Assembly (NCBI GenBank): GCA_000002445.1
Contig: CP000070.1
Span: 640,001-704,000 of the forward strand
DNA length: 64,000 nt
Reading direction: 5' to 3'
Source of the DNA: Trypanosoma brucei
Taxonomy: Eukaryota
Below are positions 36,956 to 62,864 of the stretch, in pieces; position 1 is the stretch's first letter, and every line of letters starts with the position of its first letter. Both the position numbers and the translations under genes were made by a program. The notes below the pieces were generated by a model. It was not told the DNA's origin and did no database searches. It saw only the letters and a list, made by a program, of their open reading frames with translations.

Positions 36956-38338
36956 CTATTTGTCGGCCTCCCGCGCACGGACCCTGATATAGTGAAGAAC
37001 GGTCTGCAGGTCATGCTTCAGCAGCATCAACTCCGAATTTTCGCGTTCGTACTTCTCGCGAGCCTCCGATAGTTCTCCTCTGCTGCTATCGACAGCCACA
37101 TGCTGCTTCTTCAGCGTTTCCAATGTCTCCCGAGAAGCGTGCTTTTGATCAGTCAACAAACGCTTTAACCCTTCAATGTCTCCATTCAACTCCTTCATCT
37201 CATTATTTAAGGCATACCGCTGTTGCACCAACTTACTTTCCATGTCAGCCACGCGTGCCTCACGAATGTCTCTTTCCTTCGTCGTGGTCAACAACTGATC
37301 CTTCACGTGAGTACCACGGCGTAAATGGAACAACTGATCCTTCTGCAGTTGCCGTAGACGTTCACGTTCTCCCTTCGTAGCCTCAATTTCAGCCTTCATC
37401 CCATTAAATATTTCAGCTTTTGCCTTGTCACGAGAGTCGGTGGTAGCGTTCACCTTCACCTCGTGGGCACGATATAAGTCTTGGGCAACACGATTACTTG
37501 AATCAAATGATGCTCTGGCATCCTTCAGACGAGATGGCAAGTCTTTGACATTTACACGCCACCACTCAGGAAGGTCCGTCTCGTTCCTTGCGATGTATCG
37601 TTGGCGCTCTTTCGTCCAGCAGGCTTGTAAATATGAATTCTCCACTGCTGCCTCCAGCTCCTCCACCTCCCGTTCCACATCACCGTCGTAGTAAGAGGAT
37701 ATATCACCAAGATCAATCTGAAGCAATGCGCGCTTCCTGTCATCCTCCAGTTGCTCAGCTTCTCGTCGGAGTTCGATGATATCTTCGTATATGTTCAGGT
37801 TTGGCTGCATCTCTTTCTCATATGCTTCGAATTCCCTCAGCTCCTTCTGCAGCCGAATAATAATCTGCTCCTCGGTTTCTTCCACTTCTTCTTGGGGCAG
37901 CGACTCAGCCGCACTCGAGCACCCCACATTATTGACGTCACCTTCATCCGTTCGCGGGGCCTCCTCCCCCAAAAGTTCACCATTAAGATCCCTTTCCCCT
38001 TCGATTTCATTGCACTGGGGGATGACTTCGACTAACTTCTCAGAAAAGAAATTTGCCTGGTCCTCAGATGCGGCATCACCCAACTCATCGGCGGCAGCTT
38101 CAGTCGCCGTTTCCGCTAGTCCTGACATAGCTCCTGCTGCCAATCCTTCAGCGTCTCCTCCTGCCAGTCCTCCGAGAGCAGCACTTTCCGCCTCATCCTT
38201 CGCCACACCCGTTGATGCGCCCTCACGCAGGCTCGCCAACTTACTCCCAGGTGAGACGGCGGCGTTGGAGCCCGGGCTCCGTGCATTCTTTGCGGAAGAC
38301 AGTGCAGTGGTGCTCATTGCCTCAGACTTTCTTCCCAC
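36956..38338 (-). CDS. Coiled-coil protein, paralogue A of a tandem pair. Has an acidic Ala/Gly/Glu-rich N-terminal region.
   Basis: 460 aa. The first 33 aa 'MGRKSEAMSTTALSSAKNARSPGSNAAVSPGSK' are identical to the downstream paralogue. Long shared blocks follow: 'EEQIIIRL', 'QIDLGDISSYYDGDVEREVEELEAAVENSYLQACWTKERQRYIARNETDLPEWWRV', 'NRVAQDLYRAHEVKVNATTDSRDKAKAE' and 'VLHYIRVRAREA'. The remainder is heptad-rich E/K/R/L sequence. Confidence 0.8.
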   Translation of the reverse strand: MGRKSEAMSTTALSSAKNARSPGSNAAVSPGSKLASLREGASTGVAKDEAESAALGGLAGGDAEGLAAGAMSGLAETATEAAADELGDAASEDQANFFSEKLVEVIPQCNEIEGERDLNGELLGEEAPRTDEGDVNNVGCSSAAESLPQEEVEETEEQIIIRLQKELREFEAYEKEMQPNLNIYEDIIELRREAEQLEDDRKRALLQIDLGDISSYYDGDVEREVEELEAAVENSYLQACWTKERQRYIARNETDLPEWWRVNVKDLPSRLKDARASFDSSNRVAQDLYRAHEVKVNATTDSRDKAKAEIFNGMKAEIEATKGERERLRQLQKDQLFHLRRGTHVKDQLLTTTKERDIREARVADMESKLVQQRYALNNEMKELNGDIEGLKRLLTDQKHASRETLETLKKQHVAVDSSRGELSEAREKYERENSELMLLKHDLQTVLHYIRVRAREADK

Positions 38339-38975
38339 TTCCTTTAAACACAGTCTATTGCCTTTGCGCTACACCAGTCTTAGTTAGGTATGTGCAATGA
38401 TATCGTAGCCCCCAGTGCGTATCTGGTTTTGCAGTTGAGGGGTCGTTCTCGCTTAGTTGTATTGTTCGCTTGTTAATTGGTCACTTATCACTTTCTAACA
38501 TTGATAAATGGAACCCCAATGGTGAAGCAGTGTGGTACCAGTAAACAAACAACAGAAAAGAGTTGAAAGAAAAGAGGTAACGGAAATTAAAGGGGGAAAA
38601 ACAGAAACATAGAAGGAGACCCCCAAAAAGGGAAGCAGCAAATAACTGCAGCAAACGGACAGGCAGGTGCTAGACAGGCAAGCACCTCCCTCCTCTGGAG
38701 ACGGTTCAACATGGATCACTTACACACATTTTTCCTCTTCGACTTTATCACGCTCAATTCGTTTTGTGCTTTTTCCAGGGGTATAAAGGAAAGGAAAACA
38801 CAAGAAGTGCAGTGTCATCTGAAATTGTCAATATGAAATGAAATCAAAACAACAAAACAAAAAAGAAAGGTAAAGTAAAAGGCAAAGTAAGAAAAAAGAA
38901 AAAAGAAAGAAAAGTGAAGAGAGAGAGAGAAAACGGAACCTTTTTCTTTTTCATTCGGCACTACTCGTAATTCCA
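36956..38975. repeat. Tandem segmental duplication, copy 1. The coiled-coil gene plus its 5' flank.
   Basis: 38212..38975 is essentially identical to 42243..43005 at a constant offset of 4031 bp, about 760 bp. This spans the first roughly 40 codons and the upstream region. The plus-strand ORFs 38212..38400 versus 42207..42431 and 38495..38719 versus 42526..42750 translate identically. 37425..37780 is near-identical to 41204..41560 at offset 3779. The 3' ends of the two genes and their downstream flanks are diverged. Confidence 0.9.
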
Positions 38976-40734: not shown

Positions 40735-42369
40735 TCAGTAGTTGGCTTCACGAGCACGGACACGGATGTAGTGAAGAACGCACTGCAGCTCGTGCTTGAG
40801 CGACATCAAGTCTGAATTCTCCTCCTCGTAATCTTGTCGCGCTTTTCGAACCTCTTCTCCACTTCTTGTGACATCCAACAAATGCTTCCGTAGCTCTTGA
40901 ACGATACTCTCGCCACTGACTTTCGCATCCTTCAGCTCGCGCCGCAACTGAATGAGTTCCATCTCAAGGTCTTTGACTGTACGTTTCAGCTCCACAGAAG
41001 CACCAAAGTGCCTATTCTCCTCACCCACAACTCGGGCCTCCAGAGCATCCTGACGCCTTTTCGACGTCACCTGCAGCTCCTTCACGTGAGTACCACGGCG
41101 TAAGTGGAAACGTTGTTCCTTGTCTATAACCAACAGACGTTCCCGCCGCTGACGCAGCTCGTTCAACTCCGCAGCGATCTCTTGCCGCAGTTCAGCTTTT
41201 GCCTTGTCACGAGAGTCGGTGGTAGCGTTCACCTTCACCTCGTGGGCACGATATAAGTCTTGGGCAACACGATTACTTGAATCAAATGACCTTTTGGCCT
41301 CCCTCAAACGAAATCCCAACTTCATGATATCCACACGCCACCACTCAGGAAGGTCCGTCTCGTTCCTTGCGATGTATCGTTGGCGCTCTTTCGTCCAGCA
41401 GGCTTGTAAATATGAATTCTCCACTGCTGCCTCCAGCTCCTCCACCTCCCGTTCCACATCACCGTCGTAGTAAGAGGATATATCACCAAGATCAATCTGA
41501 AGCAATGCGCGCTTCCTGTCATCCTCCAGTTGCTCAGCTTCTCGTCGGAGTTCGATGACCTCTTCGTACATGTTCAGGTTTGGCTGCATCTCCTCCTCAT
41601 ATGCTTCGAATTCCCTCAGCTCCTCCCGCAGCCGAATAATAATCTGCTCCTCGGTTTCTTCCTCTTCTTCTGGAGCACCCGACGATGGCTGGCGGTCTGA
41701 CCTCCTGCTGCTGTCAAAAAAGTTCTCCCCATGCGCATCAACATCACTCTCACTGAGTTCAAATTCATCGGCACCCCCCTGCCTCCGCTCACTCCTTCTT
41801 CCGCTTTTTGCTTTACTCCTCAATTCACTTGTTACCTCACTTCCCAATTCGCTCCATTCTCCATCACCATCGTCCCGCACACCATACCTCGCCTCGACGC
41901 TTCGCCCACTTTTCCCCGCACTCCTCATCTCGCTGTCGCGCACGCTTTTCCTGTCACTTTTGAGTTCACTTTGTGGTGAAAGCTCGCGAGTGCTTTTCCG
42001 GTCACTTTTGAGTTCGCTGTGTGATATTTCGCGCATACTCTTCCGATCACTTTTGAGTTCACTTTGTGGTGAAACTCCACTCATGCTTTTCCGATCACTT
42101 TTGAGTTCACTTTGTGGTGAAAGCTCGCGAGTGCTTTTCCGGTCACTTTTGAGTTCGCTGTGTGATATTTCGCGCATACTCTTCCGATCACTTTTGAGTT
42201 CACTTTGTGGTGAAAGCTCGCGAGTGCTTTTCCGGTCACTCCTTAATGCGCCCTCACGCAGGCTCACCGACTTACTCCCAGGTGAGACGGCGGCGTTGGA
42301 GCCCGGGCTCCGTGCATTCTTTGCGGAAGACAGTGCAGTGGTGCTCATTGCCTCAGACTTTCTTCCCAC
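40735..42369 (-). CDS. Coiled-coil protein, paralogue B of a tandem pair. Carries about seven copies of a 15-aa basic Ser/Arg/Lys repeat.
   Basis: 544 aa. Same N-terminus and conserved blocks as paralogue A. Residues about 41–147 are imperfect repeats 'LKSDRKS(T/M)RE(L/I)S(P/H)(Q/S)(S/E)E', encoded by 45-bp tandem units at about 41930..42250. Confidence 0.8.
   Translation of the reverse strand: MGRKSEAMSTTALSSAKNARSPGSNAAVSPGSKSVSLREGALRSDRKSTRELSPQSELKSDRKSMREISHSELKSDRKSTRELSPQSELKSDRKSMSGVSPQSELKSDRKSMREISHSELKSDRKSTRELSPQSELKSDRKSVRDSEMRSAGKSGRSVEARYGVRDDGDGEWSELGSEVTSELRSKAKSGRRSERRQGGADEFELSESDVDAHGENFFDSSRRSDRQPSSGAPEEEEETEEQIIIRLREELREFEAYEEEMQPNLNMYEEVIELRREAEQLEDDRKRALLQIDLGDISSYYDGDVEREVEELEAAVENSYLQACWTKERQRYIARNETDLPEWWRVDIMKLGFRLREAKRSFDSSNRVAQDLYRAHEVKVNATTDSRDKAKAELRQEIAAELNELRQRRERLLVIDKEQRFHLRRGTHVKELQVTSKRRQDALEARVVGEENRHFGASVELKRTVKDLEMELIQLRRELKDAKVSGESIVQELRKHLLDVTRSGEEVRKARQDYEEENSDLMSLKHELQCVLHYIRVRAREANY
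41930..42250. repeat. Coding 45-bp tandem repeat array (about 7 units, organised as 90-bp double units) inside paralogue B.
   Basis: The plus strand shows a repeated 'cgagtgcttttccggtcacttttgagttcgctgtgtgatatttcgcgcatactcttccgatcacttttgagttcactttgtggtgaaa' motif. On the minus strand it encodes the SELKSDRKS(M/T)RE(I/L)S units. Paralogue A lacks the array, which accounts for the 84-aa length difference. Confidence 0.85.
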
Positions 42370-42989
42370 TTCCTTTAAACACAGTCTATTGCCTTTGCGC
42401 TACACCAGTCTTAGTTAGGTATGTGCAATGATATCGTAGCCCCCAGTGCGTATCTGGTTTTGCAGTTGAGGGGTCGTTCTCGCTTAGTTGTATTGTTCGC
42501 TTGTTAATTGGTCACTTATCACTTTCTAACATTGATAAATGGAACCCCAATGGTGAAGCAGTGTGGTACCAGTAAACAAACAACAGAAAAGAGTTGAAAG
42601 AAAAGAGGTAACGGAAATTAAAGGGGGAAAAACAGAAACATAGAAGGAGACCCCCAAAAAGGGAAGCAGCAAATAACTGCAGCAAACGGACAGGCAGGTG
42701 CTAGACAGGCAAGCACCTCCCTCCTCTGGAGACGGTTCAACATGGATCACTTACACACATTTTTCCTCTTCGACTTTATCACGCTCAATTCGTTTTGTGC
42801 TTTTTCCAGGGGTATAAAGGAAAGGAAAACACAAGAAGTGCAGTGTCATCTGAAATTGTCAATATGAAATGAAATCAAAACAACAAAACAAAAAAGAAAG
42901 GTAAAGTAAAAGGCAAAGTAAGAAAAAAGAAAAAAGAAAGAAAAGTGAAGAGAGAGAGAGAAAACGGAACCTTTTTCTTTTTCATTCGG

Positions 42990-45900
42990 CACTACTCGTA
43001 ATTCCTCTTTACATTTTTTCTCCCATGTGGTTCTTTGTTTTCCTCTCTGTTGTCATTATTACCGCCGTCCACCGCGTGTATGAGTGCGTTTCTCGTTGTC
43101 ACCCTTTTTTTTTTCTCTCCTATGCCCTCTCAACTTCACCTTTACTTTATTCATTCACATAAATCATTCTTCCATTGAGTCATCGCCACTTCCCTCATTA
43201 TTAACGTGCATCAATTGCTCATTCCCATCCTCCTTGATTGAAGCGTGATAAGCAGGGAAAAGAAGAGACATGGTAGTTTTTTTATGACGGCATTAACAAC
43301 AACGGCGGTGGACAGGGGTGGAGGGATAAAACGACAAAAAAGTGTCAGTTAAAAAAAAAATCCTTATTCCTAGCATGTTTTTTTTTCTCTTTTTCTTATT
43401 TTCTCTCTCCTTTCGTTTTCTTTTTCCTCAGTCATTTTACTACCGTATGTCCGAGTATATATATGTGTGTGTGTGTGTGAAGGAGTGAAGGGGTGAAGGG
43501 ATGAGGGGGTGAAGGAGTGAAGGGGCGAAGGGAACCAAGGTTTTCATTTCATTTTTTCCCCTCCCCCTTAGAAGTTTCAAAGGAAGCAAATGAAAGAAAA
43601 GAAAGGGGGGAAATGAGGGACTGCAGAGGGAGGAAAATGCATTACTATAGTCGCGTCCTCTCATTCTCTTTTCCCACAATTTCCCCCCTCCCCTCTTCCT
43701 TAAGAACTCCTTGTACTCCTCTTATCATCATTGTTAGTGCACACGTGCGTTTGCGTGTGAATATATATATATATATATATTCATTTATTTATTTATTTAT
43801 TCTTTCATTTCTTTCACACACACACACACAAGCACAAGCACAAGCACATTTATACTCATACATACACAATTTTATTATTTACCTTACCACTTCCACAACA
43901 GAAAGCCATACGTAGTGACAGACGATCTTTTCTCCTTTTTCCCTTCTCTCGCATCTCTTCCTTAGTAAACAAAACAATATTTTCTCCTAATTCCACGCGT
44001 ATGCGCATATGTTATTGTTGTTGCTCGCATTCATCTTTTATCTTTTATCTTTTATCTTTTATTATATATATATATATATATATATATTTCCTCATTGTAC
44101 TTTATTCAACTCTGAGGTGTTCTGCATCGTTTGTTATCCCTTTTTGCGCCCTTTCATTTATTTATTAGCTGTTTTTTTCATTTTTTTTTTCTTTTCGTTT
44201 TCCCCCTTGTTATTCCTTCCTCAGCACAACCTTAACGTTCTGTAACAATTTCGGCTAAAGAAGGGGGAAAAAAAACAGGGGGCCCTCAACCACACATTAC
44301 GGGATGATAATCAAATCAGCAAAAGTGTTAATGGAGTGTGGTGGGGGTGGTAAAAGCGCTGTAGCGGCTGAGAAACGGAAGTTATGAAAACAACCAATAA
44401 AAAAAGGGGGAAAAGGAAGATAGCCGTAGAGAACGGGCTGCTTCAACTGTTTTACATTTCCTTCAAAAATATGTCATCCATCCTCTGCCTCAGCATTTTA
44501 AAAAAAAAAAACGATATCATTACATATTTTTTTTTAAATACCTTTCGTTGCCTTGCATTTGCATTAGTGCCGTCCACTCAATTTATTTTCCTTTTTCCTT
44601 CCGGTGCGCCTTTGTTTTCATCTCCTTTAAGTTTTTTTTCTTTTCCTTTGGTTCCTTCAGATTCAACCCTTTATTTTTATTTTTATTCCTATTTTCTTTC
44701 CCCTCCACGGTGGCGCAAAAGATATATCATTAATTAAATTTATTTATTTACTTATTTTCGTCTTCCCTTTGCATCAGCATAAAAATATATTTAGTCAGCA
44801 CAAACAAAAGTGGTAGGAACATATCAAATTAAACGAAACAAAAGAAGGAGAAGGGGAAACCACACACAAACACACACAAAAATACGCAACAAAACAAAAC
44901 ATAATAAAACATAATAAAACAAAAGCAAAATTCCTCAAAAACCGCATAAACAAAAATAACAACAAGAATAAGTGATATTGCATGTATTTCCCCTTTTGTG
45001 TTTATTTCTCTCTTCTTGTTTTTGTTTCCTTTACTTTTTTCCCTGCATTTACTCCCATACACGTACACACGTATACGCATACGTATTCATGGAAATATAA
45101 TATAATATAATATATATATATATATAAACACATTCATACATTCGTGTGTGGCGATGATGATTGGTACCCATAACAATAATACTAACATAAATAGGTAAGC
45201 AAAAATAAAAAGGCGTTGCGTGTCTAACGCCGTAAGGAATATAAAAAAAAAAAGAAAGAAAGAGAATGAAAAGGGGGAAAGGGGGAAAGGGGGAAAGGAA
45301 GGGGGAAAACAAAAAAGACATTTTTTTCCCCCTCCTCCTCCCGTCCCTCCCTCTTTTCAAGAAGGAATACATTTATAAACACACGGAAGGTAAACAAAAC
45401 AAAGAAGAGGGAAAAAGAAAAATAGCATCAATAAAGTAATTAGATGAGAAGGTGTTCGGAGGTTGTTGTTTTTTTCTTGTTAAAGGGAGAAATAACAAAA
45501 ATAGTTAAAATAGTTAAAATGATTAAAATAATAAAGATAATAAAGATAATAAAAATAACAACTGAAATATAAATTAAAACAATTCATAATAACAATAATG
45601 GTAATAAAATCACCACATTCATACTCATATTCATGACAGTTAACTTTCCCTTCCGTTTTCTTATTCATTCTTTTTTTTTTCAATTATCTCATTCCTTTTC
45701 CAGTCCTTTTTGTTCATACTCTCCCTTCCGTCGCTCATGTAACAAACTACTGACAATAATAACAATAATAATGATAATAATAACCTCCAAAAAGAAAAAA
45801 AACAACTCATAATAATGAAAAAAATGATAACAATTCATACAACGAATTAAATATTTCAAGTGATAAATCGAGAATGCTACAAAATATATAAATAAAGTCC

Positions 45901-47887: not shown

Positions 47888-49165
47888 TTAATTCCTGCCC
47901 CTCCCTTCCCCTTTTTCAATACCACGATCGGTACCATTGGTTCCATAAGGGTTGTAATGCCAGCGCTCCCGACCACCTTTACCGTTTCGAGTCACCACCA
48001 CAATGTTTGGTGTCATGCCGCAACCCTGCTCAGCCAAGCAATCACCAGATGTGCTGGGATCGACGTCGAGCGATAAGTTGTCCGAAGGAAAGAACGTACT
48101 CGAGACCTGGCGCATGTGAATGTCACTTACCTGCCGTGAAAGCGAAAAAGGGATATGCGCCTGTCCACAGTCCACAACGGAATGAGCTTCGGTGCAGGAG
48201 CTGGGATCGCAGCATCTCACAACTGCGGGTTGAGTAGTAACGGAGGCATCTCCAAGTGTCACGCTGCGATTGGCCCCAAACAGCGAACCTGTTGGGCTTC
48301 CGGGACACGTCCAGCCACCCGAGACGGGAGTCGGTGCATCGCAGGCAGCCGCTGCTGCAGGTGGAGGTGGCATAGAGGTACCGGAGGCAGTCACGACAAA
48401 ACAACCGCCGGAAGGTGAGGAGGAAGGAGGTTTCTTCCATGAACGCGGGCGCTGACCCAGTGTGAGGCCCCGATCACACCTCGCCACTTCCTTGCAGATG
48501 TGGAGGTAATTGCACTCCTCCGCGTAGCGGCAGCGATCCTGCACGTGTAGGCGGCAGAGCGTAATATCACCAGCCTCCAGCACAAGGCACGATGGGGGAG
48601 TGCCGAATGCACGACTTTCCCACTGAGCCCCATCTTGTCCCTCCGCTTGGGGTGTGGAATGAAAAAGAGCGTCCAGCAACCGCGAAATGGGAGTGGTGTA
48701 ACTGAAACGGGCGAGTGGAATGTAGCCGCCTCCGTAGGTCGCATCCGGGACGTGAACCACAACGCGCGACATCCATGATCGGTTATCCAGGGCATTGACG
48801 TAATCACGGTCCCCATGCAGCGCACAGCATATGGGTAGATAGTCCACTTGACTTCGAAGCGCAGCCACAACATTCAGCGCAGCATGCACCTGATGGCACT
48901 GTGTACCCTGCCGGCAGCGCCCATCCAGGAACAGCAAGCAAAGGCTCGGGATTGTCGTGCGTTGGTGCGCCCGGGTGGGGTACACGCAACTGAGTGGGAT
49001 CCGTAATTTGCGCGTGGCGGGATCCACAACGACCATGCACTCAACACCTTTTTCAAAACACATGATATCCCTCCTGGTTTCGAGTGGCGAGGCTACGAGC
49101 TGCATAATTGTACCTTCGGTTGTATCTAAGGTCACCTTCACAGTCTTATTCGTTGCTCTTTGCAC
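47888..49165 (-). CDS. ZC3H20: Tandem CCCH zinc-finger RNA-binding protein, ZC3H20-like (gene A of the ZC3H20/21/22 cluster).
   Basis: 425 aa. Two C-x7-C-x5-C-x3-H fingers: '[19 protein letters not shown]' and '[19 protein letters not shown]'. The inter-finger block is '[64 protein letters not shown]'. The symbol rests on remembered synteny and relative size. It cannot be verified here. Confidence 0.75.
48684..49040. repeat. High-identity tract shared with 54014..54370, a putative gene-conversion tract covering the CCCH inter-finger region of ZC3H-like genes A and B.
   Basis: 48684..48881 is 100% identical to 54014..54211, 198 bp at offset 5330. Only scattered substitutions continue to 49040/54370. 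Sequence immediately below 48684/54014 is unalignable. The listed small ORFs 48874..49056 and 54003..54254 translate to the same peptide. Confidence 0.9.
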
Positions 49166-53073: not shown

Positions 53074-54564
53074 TCAATCGCTGATTCCTCCCGTTGGAGT
53101 CACACCGTATGGATTGTGTTGCCAGGCGCGTGCAGAGACAGACGCTGAAGACACCGACTCGACCGGCTGTGGAACTGATGACGAAGTCCCATTGGGGCAA
53201 AGGTGAGTGGAGGAGCACTCATCTCCGGGACAGAAATAACAATTAGGTCCGTCACTACCGTAACCGTTCCGGCTGCCGTACGCGTAACCGTTGCAACCGG
53301 AATAATTGTTGTTGTCGGCGTAATGGCAGTCGCTGCACGACCCAACGAATGCGCATGGTGCGCACCCAGACTCAGGTGAGCTCCAGCGATCCCAGCAGCC
53401 TCCGGCCCCATACATTGCTGCATCCTCCCTTGCTGCTGCTGTTGTTGTTGTTGAGGTTGTTGTGGAAGAATAGCAACGCGGAACTCCGGGGTGCCCTTGG
53501 ACAAATCGGGGGGCGAGGGACGGCAATGGTGCAGCATCCATGCGACTTTCCATGTAGGCACCGGTGGGGTACCGCCCAGAAACCCAAGAGCAGTCGCTGT
53601 TAATATCCGACACGGCGTTATAACTCATTGAGCCCTCGTACGATCGAAGGGGGAATGGCGTCTGGTATTCAACCGTGGGGTATGAAAGGGGCCTTCCACG
53701 TACACGTTGTTGACGGGAGACCGAAACGAATACAGAACCCTTCTTTGCTCCTCGTGGGCCGGGTTCTCCCCCATCACGCGCCTGTGACGTGAGCGAGTAA
53801 TCACCGCTGCCATTATTGACATCGACAACAATTTCTTTGCAGATATGAAGGAAGATGCACTCCTCCGCGTATCGGCAGCGGTCCAGCGTGTGAAGGCCAC
53901 ATATTTTAAAGTCACATGCGTTTAAGACCATCCGCTTTGGATGTCCCCCACCATCAACTGCCGCAACACTGACGCCACTCTCGAGGCGAGCGTTGACTTC
54001 CCTCAATATCCTGGAAATGGGAGTGGTGTAACTGAAACGGGCGAGTGGAATGTAGCCGCCTCCGTAGGTCGCATCCGGGACGTGAACCACAACGCGCGAC
54101 ATCCATGATCGGTTATCCAGGGCATTGACGTAATCACGGTCCCCATGCAGCGCACAGCATATGGGTAGATAGTCCACTTGACTTCGAAGCGCAGCCACAA
54201 CGTCCAGCGCAGCATGCACCTGATGGCACTGTGTACCCTGCCGGCAGCGTCCATTTAAAAACAACTGGCAAAGGCTCGGGATTGTCGTGCGTTGTTGCGC
54301 CTGGGTGGGGTACACGCAACTGAGTGGGATCAGTAATTTGCGGGTGGCGGGATCCACAACCGTCAAGCACAAAACGCCCTTTTCGTCGAGAGCAAGGTGC
54401 CTTTCACCACCAGCTGGTGCGTTTACCGAAAAGTAGCGATGAGATTGTGGATGGCTCATAATGGTGTCCCGGTACTGTAATGACCTCTCTTCCTGGCGTT
54501 CAGTTGAAACTCCTCTATGTTCTTTTTTCGATGGCTTTAGTACTCCTCGCGCGGTCTCTCCCAC
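53074..54564 (-). CDS. ZC3H21: Tandem CCCH zinc-finger RNA-binding protein, ZC3H21-like (gene B of the cluster). Close paralogue of gene A.
   Basis: 496 aa. Fingers '[19 protein letters not shown]' and '[19 protein letters not shown]'. The inter-finger block is identical to gene A. Outside the zinc-finger region there is little similarity to gene A. A Thr/Ser-rich low-complexity C-terminal half contains '[12 protein letters not shown]'. Confidence 0.75.
54014..54370. repeat. Partner copy of the high-identity tract at 48684..49040.
   Basis: See the entry at 48684..49040. Confidence 0.9.
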
Positions 54565-60737: not shown

Positions 60738-62864
60738 TCAAAAGGGTACGTGTAGGGGAACTTGTGAAGGCATATTCCCCTTGCCAGAGCCGTACATTGG
60801 CAAGCACAAGTTGCGAAAGCCGTCTTCCCGACCTGAGACGAAACAGAAGGGGCCGTACGTTTGCCCATCCGTTCCCATCTGCTGCTGCGCGCTAGCAACC
60901 GGTAGTCCCGTTGCAGAAATCATAGGATACATCACAGTTGTGGAAGGCACCAGAACTGTCGACGGCCAAACGGTATGTCCATTTTGCATTGGTTGTGGGC
61001 AAGGGGCTACTGATGACTGCTTCTGTGGAAAATACATTGCACAGCACGGCACAGACGGGGTGCTCACTTCCCTACCACTGATTGGGGTTACGCTCTGTCG
61101 ATCGTTTAAGCTGAACTGTGACGGTGATGGCACGCTTTTCTCCTCGCTTGGGTCGGTGACGGGGAAAGCCACACCGTGCAGCCTCATTGTTGTTGCGAGG
61201 CCGTGTCTGGTTTCGCCGAGAGGGCCATCTTCATAAACAGGTGGCCTCTGCTGAACCAACACATTCCGGCAGGTGGTACCGTCTGAAGTGATCTGTCCAA
61301 CCGTTGGCGACGCACGCGCCGAGAAGGTATTGGTGGAGGCAGAACCGTGTGAAGACAACTTCCCAGAATGAGTTCCATCCCTTTCGCTACTTACTATACT
61401 CCTTCCCTTATGCAAGTGGCTCATCGTGGGTGACTTTGAAGGGTGAAACGCCACAGTCGGATAGTTCTGCTGCTTTCTCCTATTCTGCTGCTGTGACAGT
61501 GCCCCCAAGAGGTCACCCGAAACAACTCTGTTTCCTGTGCTTTCAGTCTTTGTCGGAACCTTACACTGATCCTCACTGCCAGGGTCCTCCAAGTCTAGCT
61601 TTATAGTAGCGACCAGCTCCTTCAACACGTCTCGACAGATGTGCACATACCAACAGTCCGCTCCGTACCGGCAACCTCCCGGTTTACCGTGTAAGCGGCA
61701 GACAGCGCATGTGTTCAGTGAGCGGGACGCATTGTTCTTCAACACAAAGCGTTCCAACCCGTTGGTATATGCCACTCGACTCAGAGGTACCGCCGCGCCC
61801 TTTATTAAGATGGTACGATGGGCATTCGCTTCAGCGTCCCATTTGTTGGCGTTACACTCGCCATGAAAGGCACAACAGTAGGGAAGGCTTTCGTTTATTT
61901 GACGGAGTCGCTGCACCACCTGGGGGTCTATGTGCATTTGATAGCAGCTCGCTCCACGGAGGCAACGACCAGATTGGAAGAGAAGGCACAGACTCGGGAA
62001 GGAAACGCGGCCGCCAAGTGCTTTTGTAGGAATGATGGAGCTGAGCGGCACGTGTAGCTTGGACCGCTGCGGATCAACCACTGGAATTCTCTGCTCTTCG
62101 GTGGGCTGTTGGGGGCCTACTGTTCTACAGTCATTCAATCCATCAGGCGCAACTTTCACCTTGTCGATGGCGGATTCCATCGCTTCTGTAATTGGCGAAA
62201 ACAAGCTCGGCGTAATCTGAGACATTCCAACCTTAACGGCGTCGTGGATCAAGGAACTCTGCACATCTTTCCCCTCCACCTCCCAGATGTTCGGGTTACA
62301 CGTAACCGACCGCGTTTGCATAATGGTAAAGGGATCTTCGCTCTCTGCAGAAAAATCTTTAAAAGGTGATTCAGGCCGCGAAAAAACATGGGCAAGACAG
62401 TCATCTTGAAACTCCATATTATTCTTCTCCTGGTTCGGTAACGCCGAGTTCACCAAAGAAATGGGGAGGTCAATCGTACTGTTCACGTCACCACTTGGAA
62501 AGACAGAGGAAGTTAGACTTCCATCCACTCCCTCCCTGTTTCCAATACTCCTGGCGGCGGGCACTTCAGCTGCGTTATCTGATATCTCCCTCGTCGACAC
62601 CGTTGCGTCACCCCAATCCGTAAGATGGATGAAGGGTGCAGACACACTCACTGCAACACTCCCACCTCGAGGCAATTGACTTGCGCAAACCCCTTTGGAA
62701 GCAGTGCGCCACGCACACCCACCGTCAATGGCATCCAGCTCAGAGGGCACCCCCATACACTCTCCGCCCTGATATTGTTGGGTTGTGCTACTGGATGGTA
62801 TGCCAGCTGCGCGCGAGACATACGTGACGCTACCGGGAATGTTCGATTGTTCGGGAAGGAACAT
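60738..62864 (-). CDS. ZC3H22: Tandem CCCH zinc-finger RNA-binding protein, ZC3H22-like (gene C). The largest and most divergent member of the cluster.
   Basis: 708 aa. Same architecture as genes A and B but diverged: 'CLLFQSGRCLRGASCYQMH' (C-x7-C-x5-C-x3-H), then 'LPYCCAFHGECNANKWDAEANAHRTILIKGAAVPLSRVAYTNGLERF' (compare '[14 protein letters not shown]...[14 protein letters not shown]'), then 'CRLHGKPGGCRYGADCWYVH'. Confidence 0.7.
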   Translation of the reverse strand: MFLPEQSNIPGSVTYVSRAAGIPSSSTTQQYQGGECMGVPSELDAIDGGCAWRTASKGVCASQLPRGGSVAVSVSAPFIHLTDWGDATVSTREISDNAAEVPAARSIGNREGVDGSLTSSVFPSGDVNSTIDLPISLVNSALPNQEKNNMEFQDDCLAHVFSRPESPFKDFSAESEDPFTIMQTRSVTCNPNIWEVEGKDVQSSLIHDAVKVGMSQITPSLFSPITEAMESAIDKVKVAPDGLNDCRTVGPQQPTEEQRIPVVDPQRSKLHVPLSSIIPTKALGGRVSFPSLCLLFQSGRCLRGASCYQMHIDPQVVQRLRQINESLPYCCAFHGECNANKWDAEANAHRTILIKGAAVPLSRVAYTNGLERFVLKNNASRSLNTCAVCRLHGKPGGCRYGADCWYVHICRDVLKELVATIKLDLEDPGSEDQCKVPTKTESTGNRVVSGDLLGALSQQQNRRKQQNYPTVAFHPSKSPTMSHLHKGRSIVSSERDGTHSGKLSSHGSASTNTFSARASPTVGQITSDGTTCRNVLVQQRPPVYEDGPLGETRHGLATTMRLHGVAFPVTDPSEEKSVPSPSQFSLNDRQSVTPISGREVSTPSVPCCAMYFPQKQSSVAPCPQPMQNGHTVWPSTVLVPSTTVMYPMISATGLPVASAQQQMGTDGQTYGPFCFVSGREDGFRNLCLPMYGSGKGNMPSQVPLHVPF

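Follow-up and report, generated by a model that had tools for sequence, protein, structure and literature searches.

The 64-kb window analyzed here (64,000 nucleotides of chromosome 7 of Trypanosoma brucei TREU927; contig CP000070.1, positions 640,001 to 704,000) contains two adjoining, related genes, CAP51V and CAP51, and we focused on a tandem repeat array that lies within the N-proximal part of CAP51V. We propose, with a probability of roughly 0.6, that this array is a regulatory multi-site phospho-module situated in a paralogue-specific cassette of the protein, and that the DNA encoding it is a coding minisatellite that turns over in whole units. The array is coding, expressed, multiply phosphorylated, and restricted to the bloodstream paralogue, in agreement with an original prediction, made from the DNA sequence alone, that it is coding and confined to one of two tandem paralogues. 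The repeat as such is an already known feature of a characterized protein, and the core of the finding has been published, because Portman and Gull (2014, PLoS One 9:e106777; PMC4152294) described the N-proximal repetitive region of CAP51V together with the functions of CAP51 and CAP51V. What goes beyond the 2014 description is the dissection of the array into its units and their 141-bp higher-order structure, the synonymous-only variation that speaks for constraint on the peptide, the differences between strains, the collation of phosphosites, and a parallel cassette architecture in T. vivax.

The repeat array of CAP51V and its phosphorylation

Both open reading frames (ORFs) are identical to T. 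brucei brucei TREU927 proteins, as determined by exact protein look-up: XP_845888.1/Q57XK9 (537 amino acids) for CAP51V and XP_845887.1/Q57XL0 (453 amino acids) for CAP51. The minus-strand ORF 40735..42369 holds the array in frame, and the annotated CAP51V protein begins within it at the ATG at 42348; the resulting coding sequence of 1,614 nucleotides, with a calculated protein mass of 62.17 kDa, fits the entry Tb927_07_v5.1:678884-680497(-), length=537, MW 62172, quoted in the supplement of PMC7136023. Portman and Gull named these neighboring related chromosome 7 genes CAP51 (procyclic) and CAP51V (bloodstream), found that the subpellicular microtubule corset is decorated by both proteins, and reported that knockdown of either one, in the stage to which it belongs, disturbs both the corset and cytokinesis, that each rescues the loss of the other, and that no functional difference between them is found in culture (PMC4152294). 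Specifically, array-free CAP51 goes to the corset and rescues RNA interference against CAP51V in bloodstream forms (PMC4152294). The same study noted an N-proximal “complex lysine rich repetitive element” in CAP51V and a region of low similarity spanning about 120 versus about 195 residues (PMC4152294). In our alignment, the paralogues diverge over residues 35 to 229 of CAP51V versus residues 35 to 145 of CAP51.

Tandem Repeats Finder reported a sole strong tandem array at 41936-42240 (periods of 48, 93, and 141 bp score 377, 349, and 536, the last with 94% matches) and no other tandem repeat scoring above 85 in the 64-kb window. Units were cut at the recurring SELKSDRKS core and are numbered on the 537-amino-acid protein (Table 1); their consensus is S-E-L-K-S-D-R-K-S-x-R-E-[LI]-S-[PQ/H], with four or five Ser/Thr residues amid mixed charges. 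The predicted number of about seven copies thus stands, while the predicted length of 15 amino acids holds for only part of them, the units being 15 or 16 residues (45 or 48 bp) long. The 90-bp double units that had been suggested have to be replaced, since the actual higher-order period is 141 bp (three units), an exact 93-bp M+T duplicate being split by one variant 48-bp unit; about 2e-47 such exact 93-nucleotide duplicate pairs would be expected by chance in 64 kb. Similarly, the position first assigned to the array (41930-42250) captures its main part, with two degenerate units lying beyond it and reaching 41782. Taken together, the units run head to tail in frame, their lengths are multiples of three, and peptides of the array are observed by mass spectrometry, as expected of a coding minisatellite.

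The array had also been described as basic, and its isoelectric point (pI) of 10.05 and net charge of +8 agree with this. Under closer inspection, it is only mildly so: each unit has four basic and three acidic residues and, with a net charge of about +1, comes near charge balance. Residues 35 to 142 of CAP51V include 13 Lys, 15 Arg, and 31 Ser/Thr, and 13 of the 16 Lys residues of the CAP51V variable region fall in the array. A plus-strand ORF across the same DNA (41555..42418, 287 amino acids, with the Leu/Ser-rich repeat LFRSLLSSLCGESSRV) was rejected as an antisense artifact of the stop-free repeat, given that the long ORFs of the window are on the minus strand and that mass spectrometry has found peptides of the minus-strand protein.

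Table 1. Features of the CAP51V/CAP51 locus, in positions of the 64-kb window
Feature	Position	Strand	Description	Evidence
CAP51V coding sequence (Tb927.7.2650)	40735..42348	-	537 amino acids + stop; bloodstream-form paralogue with array	Exact protein match; named in PMC4152294
CAP51 coding sequence (Tb927.7.2640)	36956..38317	-	453 amino acids, 50.85 kDa; procyclic-form paralogue without repeat	Exact protein match, mass, PMC4152294
Seven-unit array	41923..42252	-	In-frame coding array, residues 33-142; order T' M T M' M T V; 48/45/48/48/45/48/48 bp	Tandem Repeats Finder + unit dissection
Unit 1 (u1)	42252-42205	-	Type T', GALRSDRKSTRELSPQ	
Unit 2 (u2)	42204-42160	-	Type M, SELKSDRKSMREISH	
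Unit 3 (u3)	42159-42112	-	Type T, SELKSDRKSTRELSPQ	
Unit 4 (u4)	42111-42064	-	Type M', SELKSDRKSMSGVSPQ	
Unit 5 (u5)	42063-42019	-	Type M, identical to u2 at 45/45 nucleotides	
Unit 6 (u6)	42018-41971	-	Type T, identical to u3 at 48/48 nucleotides	
Unit 7 (u7)	41970-41923	-	Type V, SELKSDRKSVRDSEMR	
M+T pair, present twice	42204-42112 and 42063-41971	-	u2+u3 and u5+u6, 93/93 nucleotides identical, flanking variant u4	Pairwise unit comparison
Degenerate unit	41934-41887	-	SEMRSAGKSGRSVEAR, residues 139-154; overlaps u7 tail	Motif scan S-[ED]-[LMV]-[KRGT]-S
Degenerate unit	41829-41782	-	SELRSKAKSGRRSERR, residues 174-189; holds published phosphosite S178; S170 and T173 just upstream	Motif scan
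T42 codon	42223..42225	-	R-K-S-pT-R, unit 1; same peptide recurs in u3 and u6	Bloodstream-form phosphosite, bioRxiv 10.1101/2020.02.07.938761 supplementary file 2; localization probability 0.957
S93 codon	42070..42072	-	V-pS-P-Q, unit 4; window PQSELKSDRKSMSGVSPQSELKSDRKSMREI	PMC6907760 tables S2 and S4; localization probability 0.999
S135 codon	41944..41946	-	R-K-pS-V, unit 7	PMC7136023 supplementary file 2
5' homology block	42246..43005	-	First 34 codons + ~657 bp upstream; 99.7% identical to 38215-38974; 760 bp, no gaps	blastn
CAP51V-specific cassette	41678..42245	-	568 bp, residues ~35-224; no nucleotide similarity to CAP51 cassette	blastn blocks stop at 42246 and resume at 41677
Central homology block	41191..41677	-	488 bp, 94.5% identical to 37412-37899; encodes start of helical domain; protein identity 89%	blastn
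CAP51-specific acidic cassette	37900..38214	-	315 bp	blastn, charge calculation

A search of published phosphoproteomes, all of which had been searched against the TREU927 proteome, bore out the proposed phosphorylation of the array: at least five phosphosites (T42, S88, S90, S93, and S135) are located within it. S93 was reported as a cell-cycle-regulated phosphosite in a procyclic cell cycle study (PMC6907760), and S135 is lower in a TbDYRK null mutant (log2 fold change of -0.636, p 0.031; PMC7136023). S88 (R-K-pS) and S90, both in unit 4, come from a bloodstream heat shock data set (bioRxiv 10.1101/2020.02.07.938761, supplementary file 2), in which S170 and S199, downstream of the array, are phosphorylated as well. 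Among the CAP51V rows listed in a further study, T173 and S178, which lie within or beside a degenerate unit, are about 4- to 5-fold up after DNA damage (PMC11408851). The confidently mapped sites lie mostly in variant units because a peptide encoded by identical units could stem from any of them. M'- and V-specific peptides were detected in experiments with Lister 427 and EATRO1125, and a string search for ELSPQSELK and EISHSELK had no match among the phosphoproteome table rows listed.

The array's kinase motifs point in more than one direction. Its 110 residues contain seven [RK][RK][ST], three R-[RK]-x-[ST], eight R-x-x-[ST], and four [ST]-P motifs, three of the last being R-x-x-S-P, and the 308-residue helical domain of the protein contains two [RK][RK][ST], two R-x-x-[ST], and no [ST]-P motifs. 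The original prediction had singled out basophilic kinases, and basophilic-type sites are indeed present and phosphorylated (T42 in R-K-S-pT, S88 and S135 in R-K-pS), the kinases being assigned by motif only. What that prediction left out is the proline-directed component, represented by the phosphorylated S93-P, so that the kinase logic of the array is mixed, with proline-directed sites an equal part of each long unit. CAP51V is one of 45 proteins that the two TbDYRK screens share and has been cited as a potential TbDYRK substrate. The motif of this kinase is R-P/R-x-S/T-P, and the T units read R-E-L-S-P; the site that is reduced in the TbDYRK knockout, S135, has no following Pro.

In terms of stage, a bloodstream-form proteome includes 24 CAP51V peptides (43.9% coverage), and a published report found CAP51V undetectable in procyclic forms by Western blot. 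We also observed that the supplementary tables of PMC6907760 quantify CAP51V in procyclic Lister 427 (9 peptides, 19.4% coverage), including the unique S93 phosphopeptide. Low-level expression of CAP51V in procyclics seems likely.

Array turnover and the paralogue mosaic

Over the first nine codons of the unit (SELKSDRKS), the four unit types vary at five codons, with at most four synonymous and no nonsynonymous differences per pair. This pattern argues that selection acts on the SELKSDRKS peptide and that the unit types did not all arise recently, while the exact M+T duplicate is a sign of recent turnover. On sequence grounds, the array is therefore both old and dynamic. An old, stable array had been named as the outcome that would speak against the original prediction, and it applies in part: the synonymous differences make the unit types old, and the exact duplicate together with a reordering of units in a second strain makes the array dynamic.

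That second strain is T. b. equiperdum IVM-t1, whose long-read assembly (CM010678.1), the only further one usable for this comparison, is colinear with the window at this locus and has six units, in the order T' T* M* T M' V, versus the seven of TREU927. The predicted variation of copy number between strains is thereby supported by a single comparison, with an assembly that has 1-nucleotide deletions in both CAP51V and CAP51. Judging from unit order, the TREU927 and IVM-t1 arrays would be separated by at least two unit-scale events, and the unit types T, M, M', and V are kept in both. The single-base deletions are located at about 9810 and about 13311 of the retrieved locus (L001), and the annotated IVM-t1 CAP51V is cut to a C-terminal fragment of 196 amino acids (P0005). 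They are probably long-read consensus errors; alternatively, CAP51 may be decaying in IVM-t1, a parasite that never makes procyclic forms. A 45-bp in-frame difference combined with an altered unit order is atypical for a consensus error.

In T. equiperdum OVI (scaffold CZPT02000825.1), the locus is broken by 10-N gaps (L002 3217-3226, 3614-3623, and 4302-4311), and the contig upstream of the first gap stops inside the array. We rejected the annotated OVI protein TEOVI_000556400 (P0001, 312 amino acids) as a real gene, as it is an assembly chimera in which the CAP51 acidic cassette and the CAP51V post-array tail are joined over 10-N gaps. On chromosome 7 of T. b. gambiense DAL972 (FN554970.1), a 100-N gap (L003 9310-9409) sits directly upstream of the CAP51 5' block, at the expected place of CAP51V, and CAP51V is missing or misplaced in this reference, as is probably the zinc-finger cluster. 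As a side observation, the 9.3 kb before this gap, which hold a kinesin gene and an NPR2-like gene on the opposite strand, have no match anywhere in the 64-kb window. When CAP51V, CAP51, and the T. congolense protein were looked up by exact sequence, no further strain records were returned, and the neighboring GTPase as a query led only to the OVI scaffold again.

In the sequences recovered, we found no SELKSDRKS-type repeat beyond the T. brucei group, either in an exhaustive HMMER search or in a word-indexed search with residues 1 to 240, which returned only the T. equiperdum OVI model; this is also the result of the repeat count in orthologues that had been suggested as a check. HMMER matches to the array region in two proteins of 3578 and 713 amino acids (P0011 and P0023) were rejected as unrelated acidic Thr/Glu/Asp repeat proteins that match in periodicity only, and the exhaustive search otherwise returned only kinetoplastid CAP51 relatives. 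In Leishmania, Leptomonas, and T. theileri, where the orthologue is single-copy, its N-terminal region is Ser/Arg-rich and contains no repeats. T. vivax (GCA_021307395.1) has a syntenic tandem CAP51 pair of 422 and 396 amino acids (L004 4386-6408 and 7641-9585), a pair that is not reported in PMC4152294, where the only homologues mentioned are single ones, in L. major and T. cruzi. The T. vivax pair forms the same kind of mosaic as the T. brucei pair: a 462-bp 5' block of 99% identity likewise ends after codon 34 and is followed by a non-homologous cassette and then by sequence of 98.6% identity. One of the two cassettes is purely acidic, the other has a basic patch (RRVVKRRPKK) and S-P sites, and repeats are absent from both.

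In the T. brucei pair, the mosaic consists of shared blocks and private cassettes (Table 1). At the position of the array, CAP51 has an acidic stretch (residues 35 to 145, net charge of -23, pI of 4.05) that is non-homologous to it, just as had been predicted. The 760-bp shared 5' block exceeds the 5' untranslated region identity of about 200 bp given in PMC4152294, a figure that understates the block. In the C-terminal third (40735-41190 versus 36956-37411), the paralogues are only 43% identical in protein, a divergence as large as the one that separates T. brucei from T. vivax over this segment. This distribution of identity suggests that the duplication is old and that gene conversion has kept its 5' and central parts alike, with the cassettes staying distinct. 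Just outside the shared block, upstream of the 5' block of CAP51V, we also observed an intergenic microsatellite, (GTGAAGGG)x7, at 43477-43532, which has no counterpart upstream of CAP51.

AlphaFold2, used with a 17-sequence family alignment, models residues 233 to 535 of CAP51V as long high-confidence helices and assigns a predicted local distance difference test score below 50 to residues 1 to 52 and 63 to 229. Because model confidence is low there, the array probably sits in a disordered segment (residues 1 to 229). The term “linker” used in the original prediction is therefore only loosely apt, for an N-proximal low-confidence segment ahead of a long helical domain. The part that is conserved across kinetoplastids is this helical C-terminal two-thirds and not the N-terminal region, and no Pfam family was detected for CAP51V or CAP51 at E <= 0.01.

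Regarding the wider locus, the sensible ORFs of at least 200 amino acids in the window are all on the minus strand, the layout expected of a kinetoplastid polycistron. Directly upstream of CAP51V lies a CCCH zinc-finger gene (47888-49165, minus strand), which by its position we take to be Tb927.7.2660 (ZC3H20), an RNA regulator whose role as a TbDYRK-dependent factor in quorum sensing has been validated. On this assignment, ZC3H20 and CAP51V are neighbors on the chromosome and also in the published list of the 45 candidate TbDYRK substrates. Two further long ORFs upstream are located at 53074-54564, with a weak CCCH match, and at 60738-62864.

Proposed role of the array and its alternatives

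In the mechanism that we propose, the array would be neither a microtubule-binding nor a structural part of CAP51V. Instead, basophilic and proline-directed (CDK/MAPK/DYRK-type) kinases would phosphorylate it and change its net charge from mildly positive to strongly negative. In the course of the cell cycle, under stress, and in bloodstream-to-procyclic differentiation, this charge switch might tune the seating of CAP51V on the negatively charged microtubule lattice or its removal from there. Alternatively, it might alter the recognition of CAP51V for removal. At the DNA level, turnover of the array would proceed in whole units, through replication slippage or unequal exchange, selection would maintain the SELKSDRKS core peptide, and gene conversion would homogenize the sequence flanking the cassette between the paralogues. 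In favor of a regulatory role, CAP51V undergoes a mobility shift of about 10 kDa while it is still bound to the cytoskeleton, before its removal in differentiation (PMC4152294), and CAP51 rescues even without the array. Neither targeting to the corset nor growth in culture thus requires the array, as CAP51 can stand in for CAP51V.

Several points weigh against this proposal. Its functional step is one that we infer, and the full rescue by CAP51 in culture fits a functionless array equally well. In disordered Ser-rich segments, phosphorylation that has no consequence is frequent, and the uniquely mapping phosphosites are confined to two variant units, those in identical units not being assignable to a copy. 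Moreover, the array is a lineage-restricted addition, given its absence from the T. vivax paralogues and the other recovered orthologues, and its polymorphism rests on one long-read assembly with single-base deletions in both genes. Finally, the mobility shift was read by the authors of PMC4152294 as ubiquitin.

Some of these points lead to the view that the array is a neutral low-complexity expansion, that is, a product of slippage or unequal crossover that is tolerated in a disordered segment, has no function, and is phosphorylated incidentally. Such an origin would fit with the complete replacement of CAP51V by array-free CAP51 in culture, with the limitation of the array to the T. brucei group among the recovered sequences, with the differences in unit number and order between two strains, and with a region modeled at low confidence, as disorder would have it. 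However, free drift would hardly leave the SELKSDRKS core with no nonsynonymous change next to five synonymously variable codons; in addition, the unit types T, M, M', and V have been retained in TREU927 and IVM-t1, M'- and V-specific peptides are detected in Lister 427 and EATRO1125 experiments, and several sites respond to the cell cycle, to kinase knockout, or to stress. We consider neutral expansion rather unlikely, and it is the alternative that we take most seriously. The array could also be a microtubule-binding repeat of the MARP or tau type, whose Lys/Arg-rich units bind acidic tubulin tails and lend the bloodstream protein extra avidity for the corset. Repeat-based binding is common in microtubule-associated proteins, CAP51V is associated with the corset, and the pI near 10 and the Lys and Arg content of residues 35 to 142 would suit this function. 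Yet the units are nearly charge-balanced (+4/-3), CAP51 with its strongly acidic cassette localizes identically and substitutes functionally, conservation across kinetoplastids resides in the helical C-terminal two-thirds and not in the N-terminal region, and no Pfam family was detected, which together make direct binding improbable.

We regard as very improbable that the clustered lysines of the array are a platform for ubiquitin or SUMO that marks CAP51V for removal at differentiation. The shift of about 10 kDa does precede the loss of CAP51V, its published interpretation was ubiquitin, and most lysines of the variable region (13 of 16) lie in the array; nevertheless, we found no ubiquitin or SUMO site data, and phosphorylations are the only documented modifications of the array. 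Lysine modification would in any case be compatible with a phosphorylation-based module and may act downstream of it. Returning to our preferred interpretation, a regulatory phospho-module, it is tempting to speculate that the array is a multi-site switch whose hyperphosphorylation, rather than ubiquitin, gives rise to the in situ shift of about 10 kDa and licenses the stripping of CAP51V from the corset at differentiation, and that the cassette swapped after codon 34 and flanked by gene-converted sequence in the T. brucei and T. vivax pairs is an ancient salivarian device that provides one cytoskeletal scaffold with two stage-specific regulatory heads. We put this extended version forward tentatively, as a doubtful one; array hyperphosphorylation could lie behind the shift, as a hypothesis and not as a result.

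Comparison with known systems

The basic picture in the literature is unchanged by these results. A single microtubule corset is remodeled between host and vector, and the array, as the most obvious difference between CAP51 and CAP51V and a multiply phosphorylated one, is a concrete candidate, open to testing, for the contribution of the bloodstream protein, which would be regulated removal or tuning in differentiation, the cell cycle, or stress. In addition, its length might be used as a small marker to tell strains apart.

At first glance, the array resembles the RS domains of SR proteins, which are likewise Ser/Arg/Lys-rich, modeled as unstructured, and multiply phosphorylated. We rejected an RS-domain reading, as the 110-residue array contains one RS/SR dipeptide and CAP51V is a cytoskeletal protein without an RNA-binding domain. 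With tau, MAP2, MAP4, and the 38-amino-acid repeats of trypanosome MARP, the array shares a repetitive, Ser/Thr-rich, basic-leaning, and multiply phosphorylated character in a microtubule-associated protein, and this likeness may serve as a working analogy for a charge-based tuning of lattice association. The array differs from them in that there is no sequence similarity (no Pfam match), in that it is not needed for corset localization, and in that its net charge is only +1 per unit.

As a gene pair, CAP51 and CAP51V resemble CAP5.5/CAP5.5V, CAP15/CAP17, FLA1/FLA2, and FLA3 with its procyclic relative, all of which are tandem or related paralogues with reciprocal expression in procyclic and bloodstream forms. 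Although CAP5.5, CAP15/CAP17, and the FLA proteins are non-homologous to CAP51 and their inserts have not been reported as tandem arrays of 15/16-residue Ser/Lys/Arg units, the bloodstream-form protein has an extra insert in several of these pairs, as in FLA2 (44 residues, proline-rich) and FLA3 (30 residues). To our knowledge, trypanosomes have neither transcriptional control nor alternative splicing and therefore depend on pairs of paralogues, CAP51 and CAP51V among them.

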